Of a stretch of 64,000 bases of DNA, positions 11,388-63,300 are shown in pieces. The position numbers were made by a program, and so were the translations under genes. The notes below the pieces were generated by a model. It worked only from the letters and a program-made list of their open reading frames with translations. It did not search any database and was not told the DNA's origin. The stretch covers positions 50,847 through 114,846 of the IMG/VR virus record IMGVR_UViG_3300030099_003199. One strand, written 5' to 3'. Within the stretch, counting starts at the first letter, position 1; each line of letters begins with the position of its first letter. This DNA comes from a virus. Taxonomy: Duplodnaviria > Caudoviricetes.

Positions 11388-11391
11388 AACC

Positions 11392-11625: not shown

Positions 11626-11627
11626 AA

Positions 11628-12062: not shown

Positions 12063-12074
12063 AATTTATTATTT

Positions 12075-13430: not shown

Positions 13431-13434
13431 AATT

Positions 13435-13713
13435 TTACTTTTTTTTAGATTTAGATTTTGTTTTACGTTTCTTAATAGAGCTAGTTCTACGTCCCATACC
13501 TACTCTTTTCTTCTCTGCAACAGCTTTAGCTTTTTGTGACTTAGATAAAGAGCCCCATGTACGTGGTGTTTTGCTTGACACACGTTTAGTAGGTCTACAC
13601 TTTTTAGTGTTCTTATTCTTAGATGATCCACAAGGGTTACCTTTCTCATCTTTCCACTTCTCTTTAAACCAACGTTTAAGAGCTGCTCCTTTTGCTGTTT
13701 TTCTAACTGCCAT
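13435..13713 (-). CDS. Small highly basic protein (LKRWFKEKW motif)
   Basis: LKRWFKEKWKDEKGNPCG...KCRPTKRVSSKTPRT. Confidence 0.7.
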   Translation of the reverse strand: MAVRKTAKGAALKRWFKEKWKDEKGNPCGSSKNKNTKKCRPTKRVSSKTPRTWGSLSKSQKAKAVAEKKRVGMGRRTSSIKKRKTKSKSKKK

Positions 13714-13850
13714 TATTTTATTTTACCTCTACGTTTTCTACACTTAGCAATATATCCGCTAGCATAAGCACTAGGAAATACTCTGTACTTAGCTTTAGCT
13801 TTGTGATAACATGCATCTTTTTTACTTTTTGTTTTTTTCTTCTTAGCCAT
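13713..13850 (-). CDS. Small highly basic protein (45 aa, PSAYASG motif)
   Basis: MAKKKKTKSKKDACYHKAKAKYRVFPSAYASGYIAKCRKRRGKIK; TAATG-coupled to the next gene. Confidence 0.75.
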   Translation of the reverse strand: MAKKKKTKSKKDACYHKAKAKYRVFPSAYASGYIAKCRKRRGKIK

Positions 13851-40000: not shown

Positions 40001-43000
40001 TGAGCAGATATAACATAATTAGCTTTTTCCCATTGTGCTGATTCTTCTGTTAATAAACCTTCCTCTGTATAATACGTTTGAGGAATAGGACCATTGTTTT
40101 CTAAATATTGAATTAATTCAGCATGATCAGGATAAACACCCATACCAGATAATTCATTTAACCAAATATTAGTTTTAGTTACATCAAGGTATTTTCTTAA
40201 TCTTGCTTCAACTTTGTTTTTATTATCAAGAAACATTCTTTTAAATCTTGGCTCAATTCTTTCTGCAAGTTTGTCAAGATTTTCTGGAGCTAAAATTGTT
40301 CTTACTGCTCTACTTAAAATTTGTTGTCTTTGTGTAAGACTTTTAGAATCTAAAATTGCATCTACATATTGATCAATTTTATCTGATTGTATTGATTCAC
40401 CTAATTGTTCAGCAAGAACATTTAAATATTCTTCAAGTACAGTTTTAAATTTATCACGGTTAGCTATATCAAACTCACCAAGTGAATTCATTAAATTAGA
40501 ATTAGAAAATGCATTAACAAGAACTTCTTTTATTTCTTGAGATTTATCTCTAACTCCTGTGCTTAGAATATCTTCTCTTAATTTATCAATTAATTGTAAT
40601 CTATTGTCACGTGATGCTTTTTCTTTTGCACGTTCAGTTAAGTCTTCTATTTTTTCTAATTCAGCATCTGAAAAAACTTCTCTTTCTTTTACATTGGCTG
40701 GATCAGTTAATACATTAAATATATTTTGTAATGCAATTAATTTTTTTGTTTTTTGTTCTAATGCAATTTGCTCATCTGCATTTAACTCAGGTTTTGCAGT
40801 AGTTTCTTTTATAGTGGTTTCACCTGTTTTTTCATCTACAACTTCTTCAGTAGTTGTTGTTTCTGCAGTAGCTAATTCTATTTCATCTTTTAATAAATTA
40901 ATTTCAGATATTAATGCTTGTAAATCAGTAAGCACATCAATATCATTAGCTGCCATTTTTTTAATAATAGGATCTGTACTTAGTTCAGAATACATTGATG
41001 CAATTCTAACTGTAGCATTTTCAAACTGTGATCTGGCAAACATTGCCATTTTTTTAGCATGATCAAAAGCTGAATACTTAATTGCTTCTTCATTATAATC
41101 TCTTGTACCTTTTTTAAATGTTGATGGGTCAAAAGGATTAATAATTTCTTCATTAAGCTTGTCATATGCTTTACGCATATCATCAGCTTTAGTAATCATA
41201 TCTTGAATTCTTTCTCTTGTTTTACCTGATTTTATATCTTCTGTTGTTTGATCAGGCATAGCTTCAGCTAACATAGCATCATCTAACTTAAGCATATCTT
41301 CAAATAATGATGCAAAATCACTAAGTTTACCTAATTCAGCAGCAGTGTATAAATGATTAAATACTAAAGCAGCTTTCTTATCCATAAATGATCTTATGTC
41401 TCCATCAAATGTAGAATCAAACATATCTTGGCTTGCTTCTTTTTGAAACATTGCATTCATTTTGTTTGCATCAAAATACATCATAGGATCTGCATACATT
41501 TTGTTTAATGTATTTACAGCTTCTTTTATATAGGTTTCTTCATTTTCTTTTTGTTTTGCAAAATCTTCAGGAGATGAAAATTTATTATACAAATTAGGTA
41601 ATCCGTTAAATACTAATTTTTGTGGTCCTTGAACTAAACCACCCATTAAAAATCCAGACATAAATACTTCAAACCCTTGACCACTCATTTGTGAACTTAA
41701 ACCTGAATATATAGATGCCATTTGTGCATCAAGACCGCCCATTGCTGGATCATTGTAAAGATTTTTATAATAATCTTCTGCACCTACAGCAATAGCTTCT
41801 TGAGTTATTTCTTGAAAACCTTCAGCCAGATTAGCTGAAGAATATCTTAATAAGCTAGCACCTGCTTGAGATAGATTACCGTATATACCTCTTTCAAAAA
41901 TTCTTTTAAATCTATTTTTGCTTAGTAATTTAAATGGTTCTTTTACAGCCCCTTCTGTTGTTTCTTTTGCAAGTCTTTTAGCAGACTTTCTCATTATTCT
42001 ATTACCTAATGAACCAGCTGTTTTACCTAAAATGCTTGATACTCCTCTAAATCCTCTAAGAGCAGTACCTAATACAAATTGATTAGAAAAGAAAATAATA
42101 GGAAAGTTCCATGCTAATGTAGTAAATGCGGATTCAGCAGCTTTTTCATTTATTTTTTCTAATGCTTTACCAGTAGGTCTTTCTCCATATTTAGCTACAT
42201 ATTCATGATATAGATCATTATATAATTTATTTTGTACAAGACCTCCTTCTAATTTACTTTCTGCTATAGCTAAGTTAACTGATCTTGCATCTCTGTAAAA
42301 ACCACCTGCTGTCTTAGCAGTTTTAGCCATTAATGATAAAGCCTTTGCACCTTCACGTGCAGTTGAAATTTCTTTTATAGCTCTATATGTTTGAGGTGTA
42401 AATATATTTAAAGCCCATCTACCACCAGATCTCCAATAATCTCTTGCTGTATTAGCATCTTTTAATTTATCAAGTAACTTAGCTGTATTAGCAGTATTTT
42501 TTCCTACATCTAAAGCTCTATCTACTGTTTTACCTAATCTAACTATATTATAAGCAGTTCTAGAAGCAACAATAGGAGTAGCACCTCCAAGTGTTACAGC
42601 TTCAAGACCAGCAAGTGCAAGTTCTTCTACAGCAATATTTGCAAGAATACCAAAAGTATATCCTGAATTAAGCATAAGATTATTTGTAAATGCACCTACA
42701 CCACTCTTAGAAGAGTTAGCAATTCTCATAGCATCTTCAAATACTTCAGCTCCATCACGATCCCCTGTTAAATAATTACCAGCAAATGCATCACCTATAG
42801 CATCATAGGTACTCATAAACCCAGTACTAAATATTCTACCCCACTGTCCTCTCATTCTAGCATTTTCATCCCACCATGTAGAATTTGCATTATATACAGT
42901 TTCATTATCTACATATGGATGAAAACCTATCTTATTAAATAAATGTTTAAAACCAGGAGCATTATATCTATCATAGTTTGTTGCTTTTTTATCAAACTTT

Positions 43001-43452
43001 AATGGTTGTAAAGAAACAGGATCAGCAACAGAAGGTGTTGTAACATCATCAAAATTTAATATAGTATTTGCTAAACTATCATCTTGCGGTTTATCTAATT
43101 TAAATAATGCTGAGTTTGGATCCATATTATATGGATAATCCATAACAACAGGATTATAATTTAATGTATTTGCTAATACTTCTGCATTTTTAATAACAGT
43201 AGGATCAATACTTGTACGAATAGGTTCTCCTGAATTTGGTATAAATAATTCATTTCTAATAGCATTAAAATCTACATCTACAGCAGGTATATCTGTTGGA
43301 GTAAATTTACCTGTTGGAGTTTTTATTGAAAAATTAGGACTTTCAATTATACCCTCATTAACATCTTCAGTACTAACTGTTTTTGGTTCAGTTGGTTGAT
43401 TATTTACTTGAGGATTAAAGTTTATGTTTAGATTTGAAATATCTTCAGCCAT
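28015..43452 (-). CDS. Giant virion-associated DNA-dependent RNA polymerase polyprotein (crAss-like)
   Basis: 5145 aa; catalytic SGADFDIDK (31786-31800), GIRIPSQ..HS, RGDGQ, YLKMS, AMTDNAKER; zincin HEAFH (36934-36948) with EEFMADEF; N-terminal hydrophobic Gly/Ala-rich helices; NADAR-like insert near the C-terminus. Confidence 0.9.
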   Translation of the reverse strand: MAEDISNLNINFNPQVNNQPTEPKTVSTEDVNEGIIESPNFSIKTPTGKFTPTDIPAVDVDFNAIRNELFIPNSGEPIRTSIDPTVIKNAEVLANTLNYNPVVMDYPYNMDPNSALFKLDKPQDDSLANTILNFDDVTTPSVADPVSLQPLKFDKKATNYDRYNAPGFKHLFNKIGFHPYVDNETVYNANSTWWDENARMRGQWGRIFSTGFMSTYDAIGDAFAGNYLTGDRDGAEVFEDAMRIANSSKSGVGAFTNNLMLNSGYTFGILANIAVEELALAGLEAVTLGGATPIVASRTAYNIVRLGKTVDRALDVGKNTANTAKLLDKLKDANTARDYWRSGGRWALNIFTPQTYRAIKEISTAREGAKALSLMAKTAKTAGGFYRDARSVNLAIAESKLEGGLVQNKLYNDLYHEYVAKYGERPTGKALEKINEKAAESAFTTLAWNFPIIFFSNQFVLGTALRGFRGVSSILGKTAGSLGNRIMRKSAKRLAKETTEGAVKEPFKLLSKNRFKRIFERGIYGNLSQAGASLLRYSSANLAEGFQEITQEAIAVGAEDYYKNLYNDPAMGGLDAQMASIYSGLSSQMSGQGFEVFMSGFLMGGLVQGPQKLVFNGLPNLYNKFSSPEDFAKQKENEETYIKEAVNTLNKMYADPMMYFDANKMNAMFQKEASQDMFDSTFDGDIRSFMDKKAALVFNHLYTAAELGKLSDFASLFEDMLKLDDAMLAEAMPDQTTEDIKSGKTRERIQDMITKADDMRKAYDKLNEEIINPFDPSTFKKGTRDYNEEAIKYSAFDHAKKMAMFARSQFENATVRIASMYSELSTDPIIKKMAANDIDVLTDLQALISEINLLKDEIELATAETTTTEEVVDEKTGETTIKETTAKPELNADEQIALEQKTKKLIALQNIFNVLTDPANVKEREVFSDAELEKIEDLTERAKEKASRDNRLQLIDKLREDILSTGVRDKSQEIKEVLVNAFSNSNLMNSLGEFDIANRDKFKTVLEEYLNVLAEQLGESIQSDKIDQYVDAILDSKSLTQRQQILSRAVRTILAPENLDKLAERIEPRFKRMFLDNKNKVEARLRKYLDVTKTNIWLNELSGMGVYPDHAELIQYLENNGPIPQTYYTEEGLLTEESAQWEKANYVISAQENLTKKETPQETAQSEDSADIEDNIDYEENFLQEDTEDIEGVDVEIPSNQGDLYLKGKWIKYVETQSANNKKYLEFSDWVKSKLSKPDRLQAAAIEDIYQQVYSPLLLKNPKLGSFYTWLGTQADNEKIQDILTFRNVSLYSLLPETKSSTIKVANENVIDKETGKKVKIYYHTDEKGNRIDNEAFLTKKEAVETKKKKVNEKKKKKPNEFTYGKFDGIDNPKLAKGTLLIKDNILYVVKSTDTMVANKGNLYIRELSKQSSKDSNNNIYLTVEQANDYEIASNKDVNYVKNTSKLKIEEATKVNPTYDRSITNRTEQIEAGVSKQQDLFRNLTSDVIGGLKLRISLGPNQSNIDIPFEDKEAFQFGTQNENPKIKKNAQLLSVEIYDANGSYGYFQGPETLLLADAQGNPMSPFQLTENNLAEYFDIPKNMSTADALNYVQLSYAEAYKIYDIFKPLLATQSLVEVSLSDFPELMVTLSEGSLTRSKSNPLITFDSLDTMFVGDDTSVTVDGEKPFFIMDYSRRYTRPKNKKEKMKVQGVPVTNIDQSSKFFNAMMAEVDAMEENYDVLNRMGKYIAYVKLPNGKSAFVGLTAPVYSPENFNALLTEIQEKASDLLDNNVNADGTVKSKTAAKAINEKIQNEIYLAAEPGIYVELTLANDGSLRVKYTNMNETKNSKKRTAQGFISNEELMAFKDVQEVINKLNAFIQPVYPKGFKLDSIKTSIQKGETDIAIFGTLETQFTPEIKNNFKLQLRVNPNVISIDQLLRNAFNTNIPESTETIDDSTPVVEPTAEEKEDIILNDYENVDPAYLLEIVRKSQEGKDLTDFEQSILDNTPAEMIAGLSIQVQSENTTDISNAEVLLDQNYQGISFKAEEDLKTFINRYYESRYQQIKTSQPELNDSDIIDIVNAEMKDIETNPNNPLHSGYVTLKRIQEDAEGKAFKITENFDGYDIEDINTFTDWVRDNINTDVISLSVDNLQNNMINGQMIAGQFLIHTHNLGLSGEISVGTNNPFKYHEAFHAVFRMFLTEAEIKRYLKSAKKDVLAKLRREGKSLTDELALFRKSHGVYAKLSRKELEERYLEEFMADEFEAFKMKQKTNASSETKSLFQKILDFIKELLGFPTYKLNRLYRDINNGKYKRAGVQENRFTTAASSTPSVAYKSLTLGTKKIKTVTNTGEQFKTITNFMPSDDQHIITSSAANLFIMRKNNAKGNVNTAEMLDGVLNDIIENYNPERQFYKDKGFMWYKDNMLKLQNYYNSLKLQKDDLKELVRLRLDEVSNSILLNQEELEQEEADLGDITVDQWDKTSEMIGGFESAPRLIRELFATVSIDNQDMFGNKIIGENKNEPIRVGVNYSKVYDSILKAVANEPSAKKRMKKLWVWSQGSNVETRAVVIEMFKQLGLLEAAQDGTLFDPAQPFPSLESKTGIRSTLYNMINNQFENYTVPYLIQLVDKNTGVVQIFEANKADDAHNTLVQWAENFNRKYSEIRIVGSKENKAARNAINRLSGFLNMPSIPEKMDIINESIAISDLIFNTTGMKFDSNYILFSLYSRLIDLNIEIPESQKLLFDMNQFADPISAEELSEIVQALNSGENLFLDNQELDSEDVDEATDDTQQYYEGGVKGRLRKISLNNAYFDETVGASTFINEEGNRIYGHQRPTFHLVELARMTTEENYVENRIAEDPFLEDNFLLTDEKFKSMQEKGQIKVMRMSGQKVGVANLTAEGIVKENKGYNKANRQGTKYGSFTPQQFIVTLVNNYTAGYNRVNPDKSLKGSYIDPVTKETVEFAISPNLIRVIEASNTGDFAMLPIHKMIEFDADGTVNLTDQAYKAFENIIKRDVKAIQKELDPETETQDDIIGGNTNSKGQRTNSGRLFELSHNGKKLLSPLKTRIRNVKTYKNPGIGQDAQNSIRSGKQTVHLLDIDKTDKVGLTEGTEGLIDLTVVESQPTSLLMKNEGLINIENLSSDQVEKLIEDLGPYVTKEKQNKKQHAFTLFKGTDAEQVYYTYGFEVAEFFRGKVSLVKINFTDPVSEKSDVKIQTDKTGQETIDILEVDSTPAEIFEQLINDGASFAEAFKAIDGKKIIENRLFNEANEFVALLGDFKAIGKISPDIRKGLGVIEDSGSGTIINDIDIELTGEMMELYNLKVDDLRYNLTQIFLNDYINTISINDALLGDQRLSLKNAIDAIKRAKMQNAAGSNVYSDIIDPALGIEQTTEDIDMLLYKDSLYEKEFENIRSEDKQLDSDPGERGDGQMLITQKANRHFLYGLGELTPQVAAVLDKIEAGKEVEINEEFFGTLTAESYKQMNAIMNSQKLVYGDGKVYLKMSAFVLTPLLTSRMDENGNFTIPIPGREKLHNLRVKLEKWEQDNNAIAIAVPASASKMMKSNMLGNTETFNNSSISEDNITKLNARYMRKQMVVPSNKVEIVDPRQIKNLITSEQDLNSKVIWDGVEFSVGDIINLYHQAQNNKLAVNWFAKRNLVFNFDEILNDFLNPQTAQKININLNAFLKFAIAGLTSSQAKSDMLSYFEMNEDGTGEPKFNLNNQLTRKKFQQLFFTFLGKGTISARQPGISAALVSDDGMLFPKRVKRVDENGVPLEWEVIRQAKWEQLEAQGAAAKLSNIGSLSGLPEGLQVGDYFFDRLRSDVMMYNEDGSESGVVYTESVMPPHFKSILENLPADAAIPDVLAMAYGIRIPSQDKHSAVNIKFVDFLPVYYGSSAMFARELVELSGADFDIDKIYMQIKSFFVDKGKFVEFGKAKTEKEKYNHYLTWALNQAKQKGTPIRESIDIYLTSNPDLEFNLNEWSNMTPEEINILNESEIIARIGMENIGLPVSEEQYNAYKEKYKGREPYSDANDNKILDYKFILQGNPGMIKPRNGRELGVAQEPANLKPLTDANAAEVLGAENAGVWDYIKANLPQLAEIVSEEDIDIDNLRGKLLVFKANKEGAKNIGSSVSPNLVINIAKEFGVSVRTLKDKNGRDIIPALTIDGIQYRDFVDYTIDPETGKQDNQGYRTQYVISALITAMTDNAKERLADKLGLNKTALAMVTMMTGMGVDIKTSILLMNQPVIRDNFFKAINKEDPTDPGIRKLLERKAISIIEFMKNNNIKIPKVAITRTLLEEKANNPYELYDISTLDVEDVTEDVRFGLAEELLTIKEFLIVYDQQEMLRNVTTLLNLQKTFGEDLIDADRIQEAAESLGFLMSDKEWAGSAKNPNTIPFDFRPVFMSKYNVKPSLHVNYYTIFRESYDYLFPKLFLESSKDFKYLKDLMMSNMVNMREQKDQEILVNNITTFLNTLAYINSFENVSENEQEGSGKQTTQDSLNNALIYNGDHYGNPINQNLHITEVFNRLIANKKSYNYFLDDFLHLRTALNEDNYTGIDKIVANNFTKLSDSDIQNIQNSFLDLYSDPNTHIDSVSLIHYLLVKDGFNKNNRGTFIDLIPAELKKQILNSIDAVQTLFNSNKQTDAAFNRVFGLTKQELSNYLVFNYLQSTSAQYHVKNVDEKTGKNSPVVEIKTEEIIEPEIRPNVITILEYEPKGSTIVDNDSESSALSMTAPKAFMYKGKKYFSVDHAYQVNKTGKFNKAADKDYRKKASEGKIGGYTRETKGRENLSLLTLLVKYAFQSELNKNIGGNSLASYGDILTDATDFTTVDMKDDLSAAYIRGLKQAQSQIVIVKNNKGENIYKNKTNIQIDKRKQIDASSEPFVIDLDKGIATIAMYAGLPTFFNNKVKTPRGQFSQNQNSDDVKVILRENLNKLRQKGITSEYVNIRYGNKPNQFIKKTQLYLPLVMRKTLSDGRTVLLVLNKYQQDGKYQSTSDLNQLLDEGQTQVVGNYAEYTIIEEGPQGSKDQNPTGFLFGNRPSEQQINKFEEDKRDAFAIDMEGAELLDDIDVEEPVDDVEDIDYGDPEDVDIETDDDVNPADVLMAIQSTQDDIINELELSNDALVESFYDSLTSEEQQKLGSKDEIMKAYLSYPKDPNEYIENLKKCYLK

Positions 43453-46879: not shown

Positions 46880-49800
46880 TTATTCATTACCCATTATCCA
46901 ATTTCTTAATTTAATTCTACTGTTTATTAAATCTTTTTCTCTAACTGCTCCTCCATATTTAAATGATCCTCCATATCTACCAGATGTTGTATTATCATCA
47001 TTTTGATTATTATCTTCAATATTGTTATTTGCTATTTCATCTCTTGTATAATCAACACCTGATGGATTATTTACAGATTCCATTTTTAATTTAGCACAAT
47101 TTACAAGTTGATTATCTGGTACTCCTGACTTTCTACAAGATGCAATTGCATCTTCCAATGTTACAGGTTGTGTATTAGGATTACCTCTAAATGCTTCTAG
47201 TGCTGCAGCATTTTGAAAAATAGTTCTATGTTGCTGAGGATCAAAATAAAAGTTTGGATTTCTTAAATTGAGTTCATATAATTTATCAGCATTATCCATT
47301 CTAGTTATTTCTGCATCAACAAGGTTCATCATATCTTGTGCTTTCACATTATCATATTCTTGATCTACAGTATTAACCATATCCATATAATCTGACATAA
47401 ATTGATCATTCATTAACCTAGCTTTATTTTCTTCTGCAACATTATAAGCTTGGGTATTATCAAATATTTTAGTATTTGTTGCAAATCTATTAGCTTGAAT
47501 TTTATCAATTTGATCTTGTGCAGCACCTTGCACTTGAGAAGGATCTCTAGAAACAGCCATAGCTTGATTTGCTAAAGCAGTTTGAGCAGCTACAGCAGCT
47601 CTATCATCTACATAACCAGGATCTCTCATAAGAGGATCATAGTTTTGCATTCTTCCATATTTTTTATCTCTTTGCATTGTAAGTGCAGCTAATGCACCTA
47701 CTTTCATGTCATCACCTGGAAACGTTAAATATGGTGGAATTTCTCCTGGTGGTATTGTTTCTGGAACTTTAGCACATTCACAAGTTGCTTCTTCAAAAGG
47801 AAGACCTTTTTCCATACACTCTTGTATTTTTGCTTTTTTAGTTTCTTCATCACACTCATATTCAACTGTAGTTGTTTCTCTTCTTTCAGCATCAGTTACA
47901 GAAACAAATTGTTGACTTGTATTATCACCAACTTTACCATCAATTTTAGAAACAAATTTACCACTATTTGGTACAATTTCATAAGCACCCCCAGTATTAT
48001 CACTATAATTTACATTAACTTGTTTTAGTAAATTCTTTTGTTCTTCAGTACCAGTTTCTTTTACAGTAGCTAAGGCATTGTACATACCTTGATACATTTT
48101 AATTGTTTCTTCAGTAGGAACAGGCATTCCTAATCTTTCAGCATTTCTTTTTAATTGTGCTGTAATATCAGCATCTTTAAAACTTACACCAGATGAATAT
48201 GCTGCATTAAATAATATATTCATATCATTAAATGCTTTATATAATTCTCTTTCAGATTTACCTGTTATTTTATTAGGATCATCTAAATCTTTATATGCTT
48301 GTATCCATGCATCTCTAACTCCACTAAAGTTATCTTGTAACATGATCTCATAAAAATTTTGATGAGCATCTATACCTCTATCTACACTACTTTCAAATTC
48401 TGGATCAAAGTTTGGATTTTCTTTTCCAAGTTCAACAACAGAAAAACCACCATTTGGTCCTGGTTCCTGTGGTAAAAAACGTCCAGTAGGAGAGTTTCTA
48501 AAATAAGGATCTAATGATATTGGATAACCATCATTATCATCACCATAATAAAATGAATTTGGAAACATTGAATCTTCACCATTTCCTCCTTGATAAGTTG
48601 GTAACTCTTTACCTTCTTTAGCCATCATTAATTCAGGATTAAAATACTGATAATTAGGATCATTTAAATTTGCAGGAACATTTGTTTCTCCTACAAACTC
48701 TGATAATGGAATCATAGTGCTTTCTAAAAATTCTTTCTCAGTTAACATTTGTAATTGTGATTGTACTTGAGCTAAATTTTGATCTAACATCATCAACCTT
48801 TCTTCTAATCCTGCTTGAGCTTCTGGAGTAGAAAATTGTTCAGGATTTTGTTGATAAGCCATCATAATCATCTCTCTTTGTTGAGATAATTCTTTTTGTG
48901 CATTGACTAACGCTTGTATTTGTTGCTGATCTTGAGTCATTGCATTTGGATCTCCGCCATCTTGTTCTTCAGCCATAGCTTTTTTTATAGCGGCATCTTT
49001 TCTAGCTAAATAAGCTGCTTCTCCTTTTGGTCCACTATATGATCCACCTTCTTCAAATGGATTTATATAATTTATAAAATCTTTCATTCCTTGCATTGGA
49101 TCATCTACTACATAATCATAATCATCAGGAATAAAACCTTTTAATGTTTCTTTCCAACCAGGTAATGTTCCTACAGCCATTTTATTTGTAGTATTTGGTG
49201 TAGACTTAAACATATCAGAATGACCAGGCATTATAGGCGCTCCAGTTTCCATAGTATTTAAAAACATCATCTGTATTTCAGGTATATCTTTTAATCTATT
49301 TTTTGTTCTCCATGCATTATATTGCTCCATCATATCTGCAGGTATAATTGACGGTTGTCCACCATTTTGCATATTATCAATAATATTTTTTTGTACTGCT
49401 GGTGGTAATGCTTGAAATCCTTTATTAGTAGGCACTTCTTTACCTTCTTTACTATATATAAAATCACGTAATTCCATACCACCCATAGCCATACCCATTT
49501 GAGACATTGGAGGCATCATACCTTGAGGAGGCATACTTTGACCTTGTTGCATAGCCATATATTCTTCATGTGTTGCACCAGGATGTACTGTACCATCAGG
49601 CATAGTATGTGTTGGCATACCTTCTTGCATACCTTGAGCCATTTTTTGTTCAGATTGTTTTGCTTGTTCAATCTTCATTTCAAACTCTTTTGGATCTATA
49701 CCATTCTCTAATAAATATGGATACGCAGCTAATGGCAAACCTTCTTCAAAATCTTTTTTTCTTTCTTGCATAAAAGCAATTTGAGAAAGCTTTATTTTAT

Positions 49801-56200: not shown

Positions 56201-57372
56201 TAAGAACTAGAATCTGCATCATATATTACTTTAGAATTAGCTAAAGCATCTTTTCTCATTTCTATAATTTCATCAACATTATCATAACCTTGATTAATTA
56301 ATTTTTGTTTATATAAATCTCCACTTATAGCATTATCATAAAATTCTTTTTGTAATTCTATATCTTCATTTTTAATTGGATTCATTATTGATTTATATTG
56401 CTCTTGAAACTGTGCTAATTGTGCTGGACTTTGAAGTTGAGGCCAATATATATCTCCTTGTTGTAATCTTTTTTTATAATCTCTTCTAGAAATGCCTTCC
56501 ATTCCAGGCATATCTTTAATGTATTTGTACTGTTTTAACAAATCTTTATATGTCATATCTGATGTACGTACAAACTCTTCACTATCTTTATCCCATGCGT
56601 ATCCTGTCATTGTTTTACCATCAGTATAAATCTCTGGTTTTAATTCTCTATACCAACTTGTATTATTTGGATCAGCAGCTAATGTACTAGAAAATGCCCC
56701 TTCATCTGGAATTTCTGAATATGGAATATCTGTTGTAGTAAGATACCTAGCATCACCTAGCGCAGTTTCATATTCTGGATTTAAAATGTAACTACCGTCA
56801 TCTTGTTTGGTATACATTTTTTGATATAATCCATGAAGAAATCTTTTTTTATTTTCTTTTTCTAAAGTTTCTTTATCCCACAATAAAGGATGAATCATAT
56901 CACCGTCATTATTTATATATGGATTATTAGCAAAATTAATTTTTTCATCATCACTTAAAGCATAATAAGCATCTGAATCTTCAAAACCTTGTTCAAACCA
57001 TTGTGGATTATAAACACCTGTTCTAGTTTCTACATTACCATCTTTATCTTTATAATCAAATGTAAACTCTCCTTCTGGTACATTAAAAAATTGTGATGGT
57101 ATATATTTATATTTTTCAGCTAGATTAACTTCTCCTTTATTTTGATATATTGGTAATTCTATACCAACTCTTGCTAATGGAACTTCAAAAACAGAACTAC
57201 CAGGAAATATATAATTAGCACCTGGCATCATAACTCTACTATTACCTAAGTTATCCATGCCAAATACAGGAAAGTCTACACCTTTCATAGTTATATTACC
57301 TGATGGTATTATATTAAAAGGATTATTTCTATCCTTACTATTTCTTTTATATCCGTCTTTGCTATATTTCAT
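53221..57372 (-). CDS. Modular polyprotein: ITMKGVDFPV N-domain + zincin metallopeptidase + pre-toxin-TG-like + ADP-ribosyltransferase
   Basis: 1383 aa; HELGH (55729-55743) with downstream ERKAD; LDAVSMTGIPGV...AYAQGDY; R (54094-54096), SSWS (53947-53958), ERE (53803-53811). Modules separated by xxG[GT]E linkers. Confidence 0.75.
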   Translation of the reverse strand: MKYSKDGYKRNSKDRNNPFNIIPSGNITMKGVDFPVFGMDNLGNSRVMMPGANYIFPGSSVFEVPLARVGIELPIYQNKGEVNLAEKYKYIPSQFFNVPEGEFTFDYKDKDGNVETRTGVYNPQWFEQGFEDSDAYYALSDDEKINFANNPYINNDGDMIHPLLWDKETLEKENKKRFLHGLYQKMYTKQDDGSYILNPEYETALGDARYLTTTDIPYSEIPDEGAFSSTLAADPNNTSWYRELKPEIYTDGKTMTGYAWDKDSEEFVRTSDMTYKDLLKQYKYIKDMPGMEGISRRDYKKRLQQGDIYWPQLQSPAQLAQFQEQYKSIMNPIKNEDIELQKEFYDNAISGDLYKQKLINQGYDNVDEIIEMRKDALANSKVIYDADSSSYRNEAYDDDPNLIKKILDKVTFLNDQYKNSGIDYDYKDVFFANPYYTRIGEERTEADASYDSREARNNAEPNIFTDDQFKAIVQSQYGHLDVPAFRELRNKLIKGETGSRAYTSGSRQGDVVLDPRQIQGLNIDMGFEGTPAELKSQLEATLAHELGHQMGSSKYIKDFNLNENDYNYIQDRMNVSDDANSHDKSVYERKADLEALRYDMYRTIGYDYSKDVLTPEILEQYKQYIKDNPSPNLPTERMFQFFDDQDIIDINNAVAQNYEIGDDISGNLRQAKDGGENDENIIAYSRFLKRFIPSAAVLAKNPLLTFTGSMLYPNTLGKGSTLETPSLEAQYQNYLITNNPEERIKSELEYEVMTGRPFVFDPVPISNIKEHGGEHDGFDWKGYFKGEQGFIPDYGGKSTTQTYLDNKDTVQKGLDAVSMTGIPGVSQFAGYSSAAIDFGDAAMAYAQGDYDTAKKEFAKGTTGAVISTIPGGKTMAGLTKAGLQATGKNLAKGTVKGGVKSTIKNIIDENNDTPIYAENLEQPIDGGMLPEITVTPKTKYGTELPIAQFGTFKTAAQKALNAYNKYMFNKSKDAFGISGRMLMDDLTLPVANSANLMLHRSLDNTYIPNLSGSDLDNYHKLITQYTINSEPFKFSSFPENKEVSFPMEPSFINKDGTPLYTFDNRFATQLNDIINSNKVIFKGDQNKPLTLVREFEGFTDVPVGKDFYFTKDYYGDVDKLNLYIDALKSGKIFNLGDISSWSVGANTGLNRFGSNRFIIEDFPLSQNALVNKYDSPLFSKNQKGIFRERELLLPSTTQFKVKDIQFNVPRKPYHYTKDDAGKITNFSPHYGADIILDVQNNTKNIKFKKKGGQTKYKKSVFNKNKMSLSNPGRLINQMLKQGIFKAEFKMGGEQKLNNGYTVKKEFDNANNIPFISYTNEPDIEGRVYYEADNDAEINVIDIETKLNQIRSKHERTKKIILKRRQGESLSNAEKQHLNSLGLL

Positions 57373-60300
57373 TATCTAAAAGATATATTTAATTTAGTAT
57401 TTTCTAATTTTAATAACATTTTTCTTGTAGTAGCAGCTTCATCAGACTTTCTTAATAATACATGATTAAAGTAATGTCTAAACTTTTTTCTTTGATGTTG
57501 AGGTTTATTATAATCTAAATTAGCTGGATTCAATGTTCTAACATATCCATCCCAATCTGTTTGCCAAATTGTATTTGTAGCAGCACTAAACTCACCTCTA
57601 TCATTTGTTATATCAAAGAATTGATTAAATCTATATTTTTGTTCTACTTTACTAAATAATGTTCTTATACTGTTAGGTCCAACAATAGGATATAACATTG
57701 ATAATTGAACATTATTTTTTGGTTCTAATTCTAATTCTAATAATCCTGATACTTGTTCAGAGTTATAGATAATAGCTTCATCAAAGTTATAATCTAAATC
57801 ATGGAATCTATCTTTACCTTCATTTTGATATAGATATGCTTCCATTTGATATTCAACACTTCTAAGAGTTGTAACTGCTTGACCAGTTTGTTCTATAATA
57901 TCTACTTCCCAAGGATAATTTTTATCATAGTAATTATTAAATAAATCTGTTCTAATGTTATGTTTCCAGAAAAATCCTATTTCATAATTAGCAGGAACAC
58001 AATCAGTGTATACGTAATCACAAAATAATGGATTATCATTTACATAAGTTGGATCACCTACACCTGTTAATTCATTATAGTATAAATATATATCATCACA
58101 TTGACCAGTTGTTGTTAATATTTCATTAGGATTAAAATATGGTGATTCACATTCACAATCCATTTTTCTACATACAGGTGGTGCTTGTGAATTATTACAA
58201 TCACCTACCATTGTATATCCATCAGGACATAAACAACTAATACAATTAGGAGGTGGAGCTGGTTCTGGTTCACAAGGATTTTGTGTAGCAGCAGTATCTA
58301 ATACCGTACCTGTTGGACAATTACAAGTTGTTAGATCATTTACAATATTAGTTGCAACTGAGTCAAAAGCTCCAGGTTGACCTGATGGTATTTGACCACC
58401 AACATGATACATATTACGAGGAGTATTACCTATTTGATTACATGCAGCAACATTATTAGGAGCAGCTAAACCTGTTGCTGTTATCATAGTACTTAAATTA
58501 TTGTTATAACTAGCACAATTTAACTCTACTGCATCATTATTAGCAAATACTGCAATACATTGAGTAGCATTAGTAAAATCATTTGGATTTGGAAATAATT
58601 GTGTAGCATCAACTGTAGCATCAGTTATAAATAATACAATTCTTTTATCTGCAGTACTACCTGTTAATAAAGTATTAGCTTGAGCAACTGCTTGATTATA
58701 ATTTGTACCACCTTGATTACCTGGATAATTAGTTGTACCACCAGCTGCATTTACTGGCAAACCTAAACTTGTTATTGCTGTAGCAGCAACATTTGTCATT
58801 GCTTGTACAGTAGCATTAGTAGTACCCCATCTACCATGACCAATTCTTACTACATTTGCACCAGTAGACATTCCTGGAGTCATACCAGTTATAAATTCTT
58901 GAACAAATGCTAATTGAGATGGCATTATTGCTGGAGTTGTAGATCCTGAATCATCAATTACAATAGCAATATCTATTGTTTCTTCCCAAGATTCTACTGT
59001 AGCATCAACAAGTTCAAACTCAGATAAAAACTCATCTACATTTACTTCAGCTAGTTGTTGATGAGTTAATTGTAAACAACATTCTTGACCATTCCAAGTA
59101 TAACCTGGAGGACATTGTGGTACAGCTGTTGTTTCTGTTTTTGAAGTTAAGAAATGCCTTATACTATTAAACGCTAACTCAGGGTGCCAATCGTGAAATG
59201 ATAACCAAGCTTTTGCTTTTGGATCATAACTTAATGTCCATGATATATCTTTAAAGTAACTTTCATTTTGCACTTCTATTGGAAATGTTTGATCTTCCAT
59301 TGTTACATCTTGGTATCCTTCATATTGACAAAATGAACTTCCAACATTTCCATTATTATCAACAGGACATAAACCAAATAAAACACCAGGTATACCAGAT
59401 GTTGCATCATCTTCACATTCACATGTATATATTATTTTATCTCGTCTACATACAGGACATTCTTCAGTTCCTCCATCAGTGCCATCTGTAAATTGTTGAT
59501 AACCATCTTCACATGTAAAACGTTCTAAAGTGCCTGGTACTATAAAATCAAAAGTTTCTGAATCCCATATTTTAGGTAGTTGTTCCCATGAACTAACATT
59601 TTGAATAGCAGACCAATCATTAACATCAATAACTGCAGCAGCAAGACCAGCAAGACTATTAAAGCCAGGAGTACCAGCATTAGTACCTGTCATTCTAAAT
59701 TTTGTACATCCTTGAGGTAACTCTAATTTATATATCCAAGCTTTAGAATATTGAGATGCATCTAGTACATCACCTGATAACCAAGCAAAGTTTCCACCTG
59801 CAACTGCTTGAGGGTTCCATATACCACCTCCATTAGTAACAGCTCCAAATAAAGTAGCATCAACGGGACTTACAAATGTAGTATAACCTCCACCAGTATC
59901 TATATCAATTGAAAATGCATTATCTCCTGCTGCTAAAAGGTGTACAGTTTTAGTAACAGGTATATTAATTTGAAATTCTACTGTTGCAAATGGACCTGCA
60001 GGTAAAAGATTATTACCACGCATTAATCTATTTACAATACCATCAGTAGCATTTGCTAGTGAATTTCTCCAAAAAGTATTAGTTCCGTTATCTACTATGT
60101 AATGCCATGTACTAGGATCAGCTTGATTAGTAGGCATTCCATCAACTGCTACATTATCAATAACAATTGGCATATCTCTACCAAATCTACTATTACCTAT
60201 AGAACCAAGTCCAGAATCTGTACCTTCACCAATTGCAGCACCATACTCAAAACCTGGTTCTTGATTTACAATTGGAGGTGCAGTATAAAATAATTGACAT

Positions 60301-63300
60301 ACGTCTTCTCCAGTTACAGGATCTTGTATTAATGTATATCCGTCAGGACATGTTGCAATTTGAGGTAAACCTTCACACTTTGTTGCATTATAAATAAAAC
60401 CTTCACAAGGAATATATTGAATACACTCATTACCTTGAAACTGTGGTAATGGTATATAATCTTTTTTACAGAAATATACTATATCATTATTTGGATCATA
60501 AACAGTTTGAACACCCGCACCATTTACAGGATTATCTACTGCTTGAGGACAATCTTCTATTAAAGGGAAGTATTCTAATAATTTAGATGGTAAGAATTTA
60601 TTCATCCACCATTTCATACCTTGATCTGATATTGGTGTTAAACCGCCACCAGGTCTATATTGAAAAATCTTACCTTGTGCTTGAGATACAAAGAAAATAC
60701 CAAACGGAGTATTTAAAACACTTCTTGCACTTTCTGAAGATCCATATTCATGTGATATATCTGAGTTTGTTATATTTGAAAAAGCTTGACTAAATAATCC
60801 TCCGTCACCAATTGTAAGTTTTGTATTAGTTAATTGTAATCTATCTTGTCCTGTAAACATTTTAGGAGACATTGTTGGAAAAAATATTATAGCTCCTGTC
60901 TCATTAATAGGTTTTATAGTTGTAACTTTATCTTTAAAGTCTCTAAAGTTTTCTGTTAAATAAACTCTCCAAAAATCTTGTTTAGCATCATTTTTATTTT
61001 GAAGTGTTGCTTTATCTTTAAAACCAGTAGCCGGAACTGAATATAGTAATCTTTTAGGATATTTAATAAAACAGTTTTCTGCAATTAATGGATCATAATA
61101 ACTTTCTTGAATACGTCCCCAAGATGATCCCCAAAATTTATCTACTGATGTTGATCTATCATAAAAATAATAATTATCAAAGTTTACAATTTTAGTATGA
61201 AATAATTCTACAAGATCTGTATAATTTTCATCATCATAATGTTGTTTTCTTGGCACATCTTCATAATCTCTAAATGCAAGATTCATTGATGACTCAACCC
61301 AAAAATCATTTATACCACAATTGTGAGTATACATAAATCCTGTTTTAATTACAAATAAACCTCCTGTAGCATTACCACCATTTACTTGTGTATTACCTTG
61401 AGCAAAACCTGAATCTTGTGCTGCATCTTCAGCATTATCAACTATTGTATCAATATTACCTGGACCACCTGCTTGAATATCACCTTCTACAAGTCTATTG
61501 GTATCTGCTTGTCTAAAAAATTCACCAGCAGGTAGTCTATGACCATTCCCACATAAAAATGTGCCTTTAACATTATTAAATTCTACATCAGAGTTAAAAG
61601 CAAACCAACGATCATCTAGTGGTATATCATTTGTATTTATAGATTCACCAGGTGGTTGACCTGGTACTAAAACTGTACTATCAGCTTCGTAATAACCAGT
61701 AGGAAAATCTACTTGTCCTATAATAAGTCCTGTAGAAAAATCAAATAAAAGTCTACAATTGTTTACAGTACCATTAGAAGAAAACATACCAGGCATAGGA
61801 ATATCTCCATCTTCCCAATCACAATCTCCAGCTACAAATTCAGGAAAACCTACACAAGCACAAGGTGCTCCACCAGAATCATCTTGAACAGTTGGACTTG
61901 GTCCATTACCAAGCTCTAAAGGTGTAGCATATCCATGTGTACCTATAGTTAAATTAAACATAGGATATACTTCAACTGGGTTTGCAATTGTTACACCAGC
62001 AGCTGGATTTACTGTTACTTCTGTTGAGGTTGATCCTACAATTTTCCATTCAGTACTGCTTCCATCCATATCTACCTGATAAGGTACATCAGCTAAAGCA
62101 CCAGTATTAAAAACTAAAAATCTATTGTTAAATGCTAAATTACCATTTTGTACATTCCATGTATCTTGAAGATCTGTAAAAGCTGCTCCACCAAGAGCAG
62201 TAGCTGGACCAGATGGATTGCCAGCAGGAACAGAAGAATTATTAGCTGTAGATCCATCTTGTAAAGTTGATCCTGCTAATGCGCCTTCACCAAATTGTGT
62301 AAAATTAAAAGGAACACCTGGATCACCACAATATCCTCCATTTTCTGGACAATCCATATTATAATATCCAGAAGGTAAAGCTTCAGAATTACTCCAATTA
62401 AAACTTAAGTTTGTTATAGGTCTTACAAATTGATCCATACGGAATTTTTCCGTGTTCATCCAAAATCTAGGAAAAGGAACATTTGCATATTTAGAATAAT
62501 CAAAAGCTACACCATCTCTTCCTTCTTTTAGAAAAGTAAAGAAAAATGGCATTATTGTTTTTTCTGTATATCTTGTTACATAAGAATCACCTGCATATAT
62601 TGTATCTGTACTAAAAGTATCTATTGGTGTAATTGGAATTAAATTTCCATCTGCATCTATATTTTGTTGATCTCTAAAGTAATAACAATTTTGTGTAGTA
62701 AGTTGAATAATACTATCTAGTTGACCATATTGATTATCCATTAAAGTTTTAAATGCACCGTAGTTTGCAAATGCAGTTGACTCAACTTCTTCTCCTGGAT
62801 TCCACCAACTCATACTACTATTAGGTTGTCCATTTACAATATTACCTGCACATCGTGAACCTATTGTAAATTTTGTATTATCTGTTAATCCATTATTAAT
62901 TGGCCATGATGAAACCCAATTATCTACTGTTTTAAATACAACAGTTGATGGTCTTAAATTATTTTGAATTACATCTACACCATCAAAAGATTGTAATGCA
63001 CTTTTGATATATCTAGCTCTTTCAATTTGATTTCTAAATTGTACACCTTGATAAGCTATTTCTTGATTATAATATCCATGTGATATATACTTCATTGCAT
63101 AATCTTGGAAACCAATAAGATTCATAATTAAATCAATAATCTTATCACCACCTACTGCAACATAATTTAAAAAAGATATTATACCAATAGCTATTGACAT
63201 AATTGAAGGTACTGATGAAAAATCACTACCATTATATACAACTTCTCTTCTTGGTCCTAAATGACCTGCTGCTAATGCTGATGCTGCAAGTTCTACTTGT

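Follow-up and report, generated by a model that had tools for sequence, protein, structure and literature searches.

A short peptide recurs at the module borders of mosaic, probably virion-carried proteins in a marine crAss-like phage

Polyvalent proteins of phages and conjugative elements have been described as mosaic, virion-delivered effectors with a metallopeptidase hub (main text of Iyer et al. 2017, PMC5512222). In crAss001, the gene order is gp43, gp44 (muzzle), gp45 (C1), gp46 (C2) and gp47, and C1 and C2 were proposed to be ejected first, partly unfolded (Bayfield et al. 2023, PMC10172136). Cutting at short motifs is known from SPN3US, where gp245 cuts virion proteins after A-X-E (PMC10052503), and from adenovirus, where the protease cuts capsid and core precursors at (M/I/L)XGG-X and (M/I/L)XGX-G (PMC3386624).

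The window analysed here, a stretch of 64,000 nucleotides, belongs to a marine crAss-like phage of 115 kb with Pfam matches to Crass_capsid, CrAss_Ring_1 and CrAss_Ring_2 and PHROG matches to portal and TerL. Three large genes, ORF1, ORF2 and ORF3 (Table 1), directly follow the tail-ring and muzzle-like genes, the stop of the 2191-aa gene overlapping the start of ORF1. This corresponds to the place of C1 and C2 in crAss001, whose genes follow ring and muzzle and precede giant genes of the RNA-polymerase type. In the present phage, the place of the crAss001 virion RNA polymerase genes is occupied by ORFs of 5145 and 1846 aa. The recurrent order in related loci was ring 2, ring 1, a giant gene, a protein with the ORF1 N-terminal domain, zero or one variable gene, a P0003-like gene and a P0004-like gene. 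Protein gp040 of the Cellulophaga phage phi4:1 shares the N-terminal domain of ORF1 (37% identity, E 3e-5) and is recorded as a virion protein "based on experimental MS/MS proteomics analysis"; gp040 and gp041 carry SYQNGGQ, MLKSGGE, TFQIGGQ, FLKEGGE and YAQAGGE. From the gene position and this proteomics-annotated homologue, we infer that the cargo proteins are packaged and ejected, and the three genes probably encode mosaic proteins that are carried in the virion and injected.

Table 1. Coordinates of the three cargo genes, their modules and motif copies, and the flanking genes in the window.
Feature	Residues	Positions	Strand	Remark
ORF1 (P0001), mosaic cargo protein	1383 aa	53221..57372	(-)	
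ORF1 N-terminal domain	1-66	57175..57372	(-)	small beta domain, predicted
ORF1 motif copy ARVGIELPIYQNKGE	67-81	57130..57174	(-)	N-domain end
ORF1 HELGH	544-548	55729..55743	(-)	possible zincin metal site
ORF1 motif copy AKDGGE	671-676	55345..55362	(-)	
ORF1 module A	677-768	55069..55344	(-)	
ORF1 motif copy KEHGGE	769-774	55051..55068	(-)	module A/B border
ORF1 module B	775-938	54559..55050	(-)	earlier read as putative pre-toxin-TG-like
ORF1 motif copy KYGTELPIAQFG	939-950	54523..54558	(-)	module B/C border
ORF1 module C	951-1247	53632..54522	(-)	ADP-ribosyltransferase (ART)-like
ORF1 motif copy KKKGGQ	1248-1253	53614..53631	(-)	
ORF1 motif copy FKMGGE	1288-1293	53494..53511	(-)	directly ahead of C-terminal domain
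ORF1 C-terminal domain	1294-1383	53224..53493	(-)	
ORF2 (P0002), variable companion	968 aa	50248..53154	(-)	
ORF2 motif copies YKNGAE, ADEGTE	31-36, 50-55	52990..53064	(-)	G34, G53, E55 invariant
ORF2 motif copy IYGGEEIPKAQIG	311-323	52186..52224	(-)	G314, E316, P318, A320 invariant, 8/8
ORF2 middle module	324-606	51337..52185	(-)	glycine-rich, putative beta-barrel
ORF2 motif copy FEDGGENLPKFQG	607-619	51298..51336	(-)	G611, L614, Q618, G622 invariant
ORF2 motif copies AQMGTE, AKQGDE	904-909, 941-946	50317..50445	(-)	family-invariant
ORF3 (P0003), cargo-block protein	1121 aa	46880..50245	(-)	514 homologues
ORF3 motif copy MAEGGT	23-28	50162..50179	(-)	GG invariant, 120/120 sequences
ORF3 span FEEGGS to MAMGGM	397-402 to 252-257	49040..49492	(-)	both copies conserved
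ORF3 motif copy AKEGKELPTYQGG	542-554	48584..48622	(-)	in disordered segment 511-569
ORF3 RYGGSFKYGGA	1090-1100	46946..46981	(-)	first GG conserved, FKYGGA not
P0004, conserved next gene of block	1121 aa	43455..46820	(-)	without motif copies
Gene at muzzle position	2191 aa	57372..63947	(-)	directly follows ring-protein genes on circular map

The sequence-only reading of this DNA had listed 20 copies of one motif in the three ORFs, and each string was found once, in the ORF named for it; YKKGGQ (13200-13430, a basic 76-aa ORF) and LPVGKNGGQ (11114-11290), reported from small late ORFs, were also present once each. The accompanying expression [AFY][KQE]xG[GTK]E covers 5 of the 20 copies, the other 15 being looser. 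It had 5 matches in the three ORFs (3,472 aa), compared with a shuffle mean of 0.12 and with 1 match in the remaining 91 ORFs (32,748 aa), and 0 of 2000 within-protein shuffles reached 5. The long form G-x-E-(x)-[LI]-P-x-[AFY]-Q occurred at 5 sites in the three ORFs (an overlapping regular expression counts 6), with a shuffle mean of 0.002, and 0 times elsewhere in the genome; the patterns for these shuffle tests were set post hoc, after inspection of the data, and the margins are large.

When matches to a widened short form and to [LIVM]Px[AFYW]Q were counted per 1000 aa, the density was 3.74 in the three ORFs, 1.82 in a fourth late protein outside the window, 0.31 in the other minus-strand ORFs and 0 in the plus-strand replication ORFs (8,516 aa). 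The 2191-aa gene had 1 motif-like match along its length. By these counts, the motif appears confined within the genome to the three ORFs and the one further late protein. In 16 of 43 related loci, the cargo-block ORFs (48,593 aa) had 51 short-form and 43 LPxAQ matches, whereas the ring and giant ORFs lying upstream (48,650 aa) had 2 and 4, and shuffled cargo ORFs 7.8 and 3.5, respectively. In these loci, the motif is thus concentrated in the cargo genes and almost missing from the adjacent tail genes. Both counts support its specificity to the late-gene block at the crAss001 cargo-gene place.

The motif refined from homologues is (L-P-x)-[YFMK]-[QK]-x-G-G-[E/S/Q], often doubled as GGE-LPKAQ-xGxE. 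Its information lies mostly on the N-terminal side and in G-G, with 0.9 bit at position -3 (aromatic or Met), 1.8 bit at -2 ([QK]) and 3.6 bit at each G; L-P stands at -6 and -5, and G-G is followed by E, S, G, Q, D or T. The motif recurs in more than 700 proteins, including those of phage groups whose N-domain is only 37% identical. Codons differ among 16 copies from the window, which have no nucleotide stretch in common beyond the amino-acid constraint; selection thus acts on the peptide. The motif is maintained by protein-level selection while the flanking modules are exchanged.

ORF1 is composed of an N-terminal beta domain, the HELGH region, modules A, B and C (the last ART-like) and a conserved domain at the C-terminus. 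The N-terminal domain was shared at 57-95% identity by 118 of 119 otherwise different proteins, and the family it defines contains more than 200 mosaic proteins. The relative P0006 aligns colinearly with ORF1 (85-90% identity) but for an additional module of about 180 aa, flanked by QAKYGTE and SYKDGGE, at the AKDGGE point. Module A occurs alone, at 80% identity, in an unrelated protein of 1835 aa (P0265). The 50 library matches to aa 671-1383 fell into four blocks of 1, 21, 6 and 20, plus 2 spanning two blocks: module B alone was the best-matching stretch in 21 of the roughly 50 matches, and 20 matched alone the terminal block including the C-terminal domain, which is also the extreme end of other proteins, e.g., P0008, P0257, P0258 and P0268. 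Ahead of module C, a motif copy was found in all seven homologues covering its start, and behind it in all five covering its end. The 513-aa version in the closest 114-kb relative consists of the N-domain, MFSNGGP, the ART-like module, VQKKGGE, EFAMGGQ and the C-domain. By its predicted architecture, ORF1 is a polyvalent protein in which conserved terminal domains bracket interchangeable modules.

Other family members carry LysM, SLT, YkuD, lysozyme, kinase-like, GrpE (E 1e-40 in one member) and SET modules, which bears out the view of these proteins as mosaic effector carriers. In ORF1, the zincin label has the HELGH string as its sole basis, with no Pfam match in this region, and the pre-toxin-TG label of module B was unsupported by any tool used. 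The ART label of module C comes from a language-model lead together with the pattern R / S-x-S / E-x-E, with no ADP-ribosyltransferase match in Pfam or PDB; one relative had an ART-PolyVal match below Pfam's cut-off.

For ORF2, 10 homologues were found, with conserved ends and a replaceable middle. All six motif copies are backed by conservation, the G/E/P/A/Q positions being invariant in an alignment of 8 sequences extending down to 34-39% identity, and in P0252-P0254 another module, or none, stands between the two invariant copies that flank the middle. Across the many homologues of ORF3, conservation covers the N-terminal 200 aa and aa 700-1000, with a variable, disordered stretch in the middle. 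Four of its eight listed copies are conserved (G26/G27 in 44/44, G255 in 40/44, G400 in 38/44 and G545 in 42/44), MQNGGQ is intermediate (25/44), and SKEGKE, EQDGGD and FKYGGA are unconserved. An unlisted copy, RYGGS (aa 1090-1094), is conserved (G1092 in 43/44).

The borders of exchangeable cassettes are therefore marked by the motif, as had been claimed, in the P0006 insertion, the ORF2 middle swap, the module A/B/C borders and the 513-aa relative. When 120 family members were compared by BLAST, 2285 alignment ends were internal, and 374 of these fell within 12 aa of a motif copy, compared with 120 expected; the proteins in this test are related and non-independent, and conservation of the motif can by itself bring an alignment to an end. 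Structure and disorder predictions place the peptide in disordered linkers at these borders. Predicted disorder in ORF1 begins at aa 74, right behind the N-domain; seven of the eight listed ORF3 copies lie in segments with pLDDT<50 (28% of the model) and the eighth in an inter-helix loop. MAEGGT separates a short N-terminal hairpin from the conserved domain in such a segment, and the span from FEEGGS to MAMGGM, which also contains the weaker SKEGKE and MQNGGQ, is mostly low-confidence linker. In a weak test, Pfam envelopes contained 1 of 42 copies, located in the opening residues of the envelope, compared with 4.3 expected. Some copies lie within 5-27 aa of the N-terminus (MAxGG in ORF3, MAKNLPKAQGGT in P0304, and also MAKMREYYKKGGQ) and look like short propeptides.

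Like polyvalent proteins, the cargo proteins are large, have many unrelated effector domains, are encoded among virion late genes and are predicted to be packaged and injected; metallopeptidase and ART domains are frequent in both, and autoproteolytic domain release has been proposed for polyvalent proteins (PMC5512222). They differ in that HExxH, a possible metallopeptidase site, was present in only 51 of the 120 family members and, within the 10 kb read, in cargo ORFs of 8 of 16 loci, so a built-in zincin is not a universal protease candidate. The main text of PMC5512222 nowhere uses "linker", "glycine", "low-complexity", "LysM" or "Cellulophaga", and so appears to describe no shared junction peptide, no such terminal domains and no marine crAss-like phages. 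The term "candidate new system" was thus too strong: the mosaic effector design is that of polyvalent proteins, while neither the peptide shared by the junctions nor the conserved terminal domains seen in this phage group were found in the published literature searched. Polymorphic toxin systems likewise combine a conserved N-terminal domain with effector cassettes that vary and are swapped through recombination (Zhang et al. 2012, PMC3482391), and a putative pre-toxin-TG-like stretch had been read ahead of the ART-like module; in contrast to the toxins, delivery here would be by the virion rather than a secretion system, and the C-terminal domain is conserved with the variation in the middle. 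In crAss001, gp45 is likewise unusually rich in G-G (8 GG[EQDST] in 842 aa vs 0-2 in gp44, gp46, gp47, gp49 and gp50), but it had no strict motif match, has two G-G pairs inside the portal-bound folded domain 425-552, and is without enzyme modules. BLAST and hhalign found no similarity of ORF3 or P0004 to gp45 or gp46, and Foldseek, in this cargo-protein comparison, matched no PDB chain.

Among prohead proteases, the motif of phiKZ gp175 is S/A/G-X-E and that of T4 gp21 is L/I-x-E, with capsid targeting sequences. By comparison with giant-phage motifs of this kind, the present motif spans more residues and has G-G at its centre. It resembles the SPN3US gp245 sites in being short, ending in Glu (here G-x-E) and lying in virion-internal proteins, with short N-terminal propeptides and several sites per protein; in SPN3US-type phages the protease gene is known and cleavage was mapped by mass spectrometry (PMC10052503), whereas here no protease was found by Pfam or PHROGs in the ORFs scanned. 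Adenovirus sites also have a hydrophobic residue followed a few positions on by G-G, in virion-internal proteins including small basic ones (PMC3386624), although the lineage is unrelated and the spacing is off by one residue relative to hydrophobic-[QK]-x-G-G. The small basic adenovirus precursors are comparable to the 76-aa ORF carrying YKKGGQ.

Our best guess, held tentatively, is that the motif is an endoproteolytic processing site at which payload polyproteins are cut. The peptide would be a signal read by another protein, and SPN3US gp245 and the adenovirus protease are precedents. Some copies adjoin folded domains at about 3 residues, e.g., before LysM, which is tight for a protease. 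It also counts against processing that "protease", "cleav" and "proteoly" are absent from the crAss001 atlas text and that the atlas models gp45 as a single chain from tail to capsid (PMC10172136). The literature searched held no data on cleavage at the motif for this phage or its relatives, and the ORFs scanned with Pfam or PHROGs yielded neither a maturation protease nor a clan CE protease, both libraries missing divergent proteases. The same location and conservation would be expected of an uncut docking peptide, bound by a virion component, chaperone or host envelope protein that would keep the chain, still unfolded, inside the particle or draw it across the envelope during ejection. The copies at extreme N-termini, the GrpE domain as a hint of chaperone use, the proposal that crAss001 cargo is stored and ejected partly unfolded, and the short gp45 segments seen bound to ring and muzzle proteins (PMC10172136) speak for docking. 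We nevertheless consider it doubtful, because a partner would be required and none is known, and because the giant neighbouring ORFs (5145 and 1846 aa) have 1 chance-level match each, which argues against a general packaging or ejection handle and makes the packaging tag of the sequence-only reading unlikely.

A passive joint, in which proline and a G-G turn insulate domains during folding and unfolding and shuffle with the cassettes, neither bound nor cut, would explain a G- and P-rich motif that always lies in linkers or loops and travels with its modules. It is rather improbable, since passive linkers rarely keep a 6-9-residue pattern over so many proteins and across phage groups, the non-glycine positions are specific, and the copies show no change where flanking identity has dropped to 34-39%. 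Module gain, loss and swap exactly at motif copies would also suit a DNA-level homology patch guiding cassette recombination, comparable to the conserved boxes of phage tail-fibre genes; the differing codons and a conserved core of only about 18-27 nt make this very improbable. Chance or low-complexity matches to a loose pattern might account for the poor fit of the list to its own expression and for the three unconserved ORF3 copies, but for the core copies this was rejected by the shuffle tests, the genome-wide and cross-locus specificity and the column invariance, and its likelihood is close to nil. The observation of the sequence-only reading is thus confirmed and its interpretation partly supported.

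If the motif is a processing site, ORF1-ORF3 would encode polyproteins of an injected payload. Cutting after G-G or G-x-E would release the modules and take off the terminal domains, either after packaging or after ejection.

ORF1, ORF2 and ORF3 are mosaic carriers in which a short junction peptide, (L-P-x)-[YFMK]-[QK]-x-G-G-[E/S/Q], lies in the linkers, is selected at the peptide level and marks the points at which cassettes are exchanged. The window covers positions 50847-114846 of one contig of 114,846 bp, the rest of which encodes a major capsid protein of Crassvirus type (PF23898, E 5.7e-33), tail ring proteins 1 and 2 (PF24228, PF25702), the portal and the large terminase. Read circularly on the minus strand, the gene order is ring protein 2, ring protein 1, a 2191-aa gene, ORF1, ORF2, ORF3, P0004, a 5145-aa ORF and a 1846-aa ORF. 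Because this order matches the ring, muzzle and cargo order of crAss001, given as gp43, gp44 (muzzle), gp45 (cargo C1), gp46 (cargo C2) and gp47 (PMC10172136), ORF1-ORF3 would occupy the cargo slot, an argument from position only. At window 57372 the 2191-aa gene ends in a stop codon that overlaps the ORF1 start codon, and since the same abutment at a shared coordinate recurs in related loci (e.g., L003, L004 and L005), coupled translation of the two genes is suggested. No Pfam match was obtained in either half of the 5145-aa ORF. Elsewhere in the genome, a GroES/Cpn10 homologue adjoins the gene for the large terminase, and the late block contains a PhoH-like gene (genome 24652-24927 and 28305-28970; L046).

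Features of the phage genome considered in this section (window coordinates unless stated otherwise)
Feature	Position	Strand	Remark
2191-aa gene	57372-63947	-	between ring protein 1 and ORF1
ORF1 (P0001, 1383 aa)	53221-57372	-	motif-bearing
ORF2 (P0002, 968 aa)	50248-53154	-	motif-bearing
ORF3 (P0003, 1121 aa)	46880-50245	-	motif-bearing
P0004	43455-46820	-	next gene after ORF3
5145-aa ORF	28015-43452	-	place of crAss RNA-polymerase-type genes
825-aa protein	16065-18542	-	type IX secretion C-terminal sorting domain at end (PF18962, E 1.3e-12)
350-aa ORF	13853-14905	-	signal-peptide-like start (MIRTIIFILLFCFSFTANGQ), end ...YKVF
Small basic ORFs	11114-13850	-	run of five or six ORFs, 44-92 aa, K/R-rich
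Spore-photoproduct-lyase-like gene	8353-9189	+	replication block (PF20903)
dATP/dGTP diphosphohydrolase N-terminal domain	7219-7629	+	replication block (PF18909)
DUF2201 gene	genome 48137-49324 (L047:9038-10222)		replication block
P0304 (1646 aa)	genome 29338-34278 (L046:9859-14796), outside window	-	fourth motif-bearing late protein; start MAKNLPKAQGGT

All 20 motif strings that the sequence-only reading had listed for ORF1-ORF3, and two more in small late ORFs, were found, once each. The expression given for them, [AFY][KQE]xG[GTK]E, held in part: it had five matches in ORF1-ORF3 against a shuffle mean of 0.12 (0 of 2000 shuffles reached five) and one match in the other 32,748 aa of the genome, but it covers only five of the 20 listed copies, so the looser copies were judged by conservation. 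The long form, G-x-E-(x)-[LI]-P-x-[AFY]-Q, occurred at five sites where 0.002 were expected, and nowhere else in the genome. The proposed enrichment in late over early genes was borne out with a widened short-form expression plus [LIVM]Px[AFYW]Q, the density per 1000 aa being 3.74 in ORF1-ORF3, 0.31 across the 51 remaining ORFs of the minus strand and 0 across the 39 of the plus strand.

Outside the cargo block, and far from it, P0304 carries YNYGGQ, KYKVGGQ and YQNGNE ahead of a stretch read by eye as lysozyme-like. Two of the very basic small ORFs have motif-like strings near the start, YKKGGQ (aa 8-13) and KNGGQ, and these small ORFs may encode DNA-associated internal proteins. The 350-aa ORF, which has the look of an outer-membrane beta-barrel, contains a single motif-like match, FKDGTE, probably by chance.

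The copies were found to be conserved to different degrees. In ORF2 all six are invariant at the key positions (8 sequences), while of the eight listed in ORF3 four are conserved, one is intermediate and three are not conserved; an unlisted ORF3 copy, RYGGS (1090-1094), is conserved as well. Around GG[EQ] in 119 ORF1 homologues, [QK] at position -2 carries 1.8 bit and M, Y, K or F at -3 carries 0.9 bit, with L-P at -6 and -5. From this residue profile, [YFMK][QK]xGGE (short) and LPxAQxGGE (long) are forms of one motif, two copies of which overlap in the doubled GGE-LPKAQ-xGxE. With selection on [QK]xGG alone (798 copies in 247 proteins), the next residue was E, S, G, Q, D or T. The codons vary among the copies in the window, indicating that conservation acts on the peptide; a repeat at the DNA level was rejected on the same codon comparison.

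Module exchange at the motif, which the sequence-only reading had proposed to look for in relatives, was seen in P0006, in L040 and in the ORF2 homologues P0252-P0254. The related protein P0006 runs colinear with ORF1 (85-90% identity) apart from one extra ~180-aa module, which is flanked by QAKYGTE and SYKDGGE in place of the single AKDGGE of ORF1. In the 114-kb relative L040, a 513-aa protein consists of the conserved N-terminal beta domain of ORF1 (aa 1-66, hereafter N-domain), MFSNGGP, the ADP-ribosyltransferase (ART)-like module (ORF1 aa 951-1247), VQKKGGE, EFAMGGQ and the C-domain, so that ORF1 has ~870 extra residues between its N-domain and ART-like module. In P0252-P0254, the stretch corresponding to ORF2 aa 324-606, between two long copies, is replaced or absent and both copies are kept. 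In the alignment of the ART-like module, a copy stands ahead of it in 7/7 homologues covering the start and after it in 5/5 covering the end.

ORF1 aa 671-1383 was searched against 1.84 billion representatives, and the 50 non-self matches, classed by best-matching stretch, fell into query blocks 3-102 (1), ~66-290 (21), 257-542 (6) and 542-713 (20), with two spanning the last two blocks. The motif copies in this query lie at 1-6, 99-104, 269-280, 578-583 and 618-623; of the three block borders, two fall on a copy and the third lies ~36 residues off. Of the 2285 internal ends of BLAST alignments in 120 family members, 374 were no more than 12 aa away from a copy, where 120 were expected; this result is supportive only, since the sequences are relatives of one another and a conserved motif may by itself bring an alignment to a stop. 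In 16 related loci, drawn from 43 after removal of L014 and L015 (duplicates of L013) and of 25 that were short or of non-canonical gene order, the cargo-block ORFs held 51 short-form and 43 LPxAQ matches in 48,593 aa, compared with 2 and 4 in 48,650 aa of the upstream ring and giant ORFs of the same loci and 7.8 and 3.5 in the shuffled cargo ORFs.

For ORF1, 202 matches were obtained at E <= 0.001. Among the best 120 of these, most share with ORF1 only ~5% of the query, namely the first 74 residues at 57-95% identity, and in 118/119 the N-domain is found no more than 40 aa from the N-terminus. The relatives are 770-2420 aa long and differ beyond the N-domain. A Pfam scan of 15 members gave LysM in 8, SLT in 4, YkuD in 3 and phage lysozyme, a kinase-like domain and GrpE in one each, with several domains per protein; ART-PolyVal matched one of the 15 at 28.5 bits, below the 31.2 cut-off. 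The GrpE domain lies inside P0045 (E 1e-40), which hints that injected cargo proteins may engage the host DnaK system. In 6 of 30 further module-sharing proteins a SET domain replaces the usual start. SET modules (PF00856, above cut-off) were seen in the related cargo proteins L017:6881-17884, P0257, P0259-P0262 and P0268, followed by ...EQPEDF... and a motif copy, and in L017 the SET domain directly precedes the N-domain. At the other end, 45 of the best 120 of 202 members have 58-68 aa between their last GG[EQ] and the C-terminus, and the 14 C-terminal tails inspected share one conserved, helical-looking sequence of ~62 aa; ORF1 has a different conserved C-terminal type. ORF3 had 514 matches, and among those listed the N-terminal 200 aa are conserved in 115/119 and aa 700-1000 in ~95/119, the middle being variable. 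Only 10 matches were found for ORF2, which is absent from some related loci such as L018, where an ORF3-like gene comes directly after the N-domain gene.

Enzymatic leads in ORF1 itself are the HELGH string (aa 544-548) and the ART-like module. ORF1 has no Pfam match at the HELGH string or elsewhere, and HExxH occurs in 51 of the best 120 of 202 family members; since HExxH modules are not universal, the zincin as a universal processing enzyme was unsupported. The ART-like module, which was checked for the R, S-x-S and E-x-E residues of R-S-E ADP-ribosyltransferases (ADPrib_exo_Tox), has neither a Pfam match nor a PDB profile match; its alignment shows conserved GDITSWS and ERE but an Arg that is not constant. 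Of the 30 named clusters nearest to it in the ESM Atlas, 28 were PF03496 (top score 0.96, 181 shared features). No match to ORF1-ORF3 or P0004 was found above the Pfam cut-off or in PHROGs, no significant match of the ORF1-ORF3 sequences in the PDB, and no tblastn match of ORF3 in cultured phages; the ORF3 profile against the PDB gave only poly-Q/P low-complexity matches. Several cargo modules belong to no known family.

The expectation that copies fall at domain boundaries agreed with the AlphaFold2 model of ORF3 (44-row alignment, mean pLDDT 67). The segments below pLDDT 50 (23-28, 206-279, 339-409, 424-436, 511-569 and 1059-1102; 28% of the chain) contain seven of the eight listed copies, and the eighth is in a loop between helices. 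Of 42 copies, one was inside a Pfam envelope, at its edge, which is a weak test as Pfam covers only 10% of those proteins. The N-domain was modelled as a confident small beta domain to about residue 70, with disorder from 74. Its closest structural matches (Foldseek best E 0.1; VIA-align wide best Z 4.4) were generic cupin-like small beta folds, so no relative can be named, and a complex prediction with ring proteins 1 and 2, run without controls, scored 0.00 and is evidence neither way. The best Foldseek matches of the ORF3 model were alpha-pore-forming toxins at a non-significant E of 0.5.

In the Cellulophaga phages phi4:1 and phi17:2 (145 kb), the N-domain is present in gp040 at 37% identity, and gp040 and its neighbours are annotated in the record as virion proteins from MS/MS. 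Among the phi4:1 genes checked, gp040 and gp041 hold five copies with fitting upstream context, while the matches in the neighbouring large virion proteins, as read by eye, are only of the G[GTKSA][EQ] type and lack that context. In more distant contigs, the N-domain is flanked by YQxGG copies in small proteins, parts of which were read by eye as transglycosylase-like. The N-domain is internal in L017 (residues 1041-1132) and in L039, and is therefore usually, not always, N-terminal. The 3667-aa ORF of L017 was considered as a muzzle-cargo fusion and rejected, as it shows no match to the 2191-aa protein over its first 1040 aa, and its N-domain comes after a SET domain and a KKYGGYNKGG junction. 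On the 825-aa protein, the type IX sorting domain points to a Bacteroidota host and to export via the host secretion system.

Compared with known systems, these proteins have the build of the polyvalent proteins that Iyer et al. described in 2017 (PMC5512222): the family combines two or more unrelated effector or enzymatic domains per polypeptide and lies among the late/virion genes of a portal-terminase phage. Packaging in the virion and delivery to the host are presumed from the MS/MS virion annotation of the phi4:1 homologue gp040. The main text of Iyer et al. does not mention linkers, glycine motifs, LysM or crAss-like/Cellulophaga phages (PMC5512222). No description of the junction peptide was found in the open-access literature on Crassvirales, cargo and polyvalent proteins, judged by title and start of abstract, where other notations of the motif would escape, and no text occurrence of 'LPKAQ' was on phages, judged by title. 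The mosaic polyvalent design is already known, and the junction peptide would be the new element. With crAss001 C1/C2 the position after the ring and muzzle genes is shared, whereas no sequence homology of ORF3/P0004 with gp45/gp46 was detected by BLAST (best E 0.21 and 0.27), hhalign (probability 0.1%) or PDB profile search, and Foldseek with the ORF3 model gave nothing below E 0.5, which at a mean pLDDT of 67 says little about the fold. gp45 has no strict motif match, yet it is rich in G-G (8 in 842 aa vs 0-2 in five neighbouring large proteins), and two of these pairs lie inside a portal-bound folded domain (PMC10172136). The cassettes had also been likened to polymorphic toxins. A conserved N-terminal domain is common to both, but polymorphic toxins vary in their C-terminal toxin tips, whereas here the C-terminal domain is conserved too and the variation is internal, so the analogy fails on this point.

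What reads the junction peptide we infer from its form and placement. A processing site is the reading we favour, tentatively, because the specificity lies on the N-terminal side and in G-G with the next residue relaxed, because copies 5-27 residues from N-termini resemble short propeptides and others bracket the conserved end domains, and because giant phages cut at A-X-E (PMC10052503) and adenovirus at (M/I/L)XGG-X (PMC3386624). Counting against processing, no prohead maturation protease (T4, phiKZ or SPN3US type) was found by Pfam or PHROGs in the ORFs scanned, HExxH modules occur in only part of the family, and the accessible text of the crAss001 paper reports no processing (PMC10172136). 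A 437-aa gene between portal and capsid gave weak scaffold or Prp-like leads (0.81-0.83). Outside the ORF1 HELGH, the only peptidase-like family match in the ORFs scanned was the DUF2201 putative metallopeptidase with a VWA-like domain.

The sequence-only reading had also offered a capsid-packaging tag. The motif is unlikely to be a general tag of this kind, because it is missing from the giant neighbouring ORFs, which hold the place of the crAss001 virion RNA polymerase genes. A docking handle that is not cleaved is a serious alternative to the processing site, somewhat less probable, and a passive joint is an alternative of slightly lower probability again. If the peptide is a processing site, a virion-borne or host protease would read [YFM]-[QK]-x-G-G and release free effectors by cutting the chain once it is packaged or injected, and the conserved terminal domains, whose role would have been in loading, would be discarded after cutting. 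It is possible, if doubtful, that crAss-like and related Bacteroidota phages encode in their cargo genes polyproteins cut in this way, with the G-G-rich C1 protein of gut crassviruses as a degenerate version of this device.

Crass-like phages are among the viruses of highest abundance in the gut and the sea. One peptide at the module borders of hundreds of their mosaic cargo proteins provides an experimental handle, through mutation, cut ends or binders, and a rule for parsing unannotated giant cargo proteins into modules. If it is a processing site, the junction could serve for loading foreign proteins into phage particles, and these phages would deliver an enzyme cocktail from one gene, as polyprotein viruses do.
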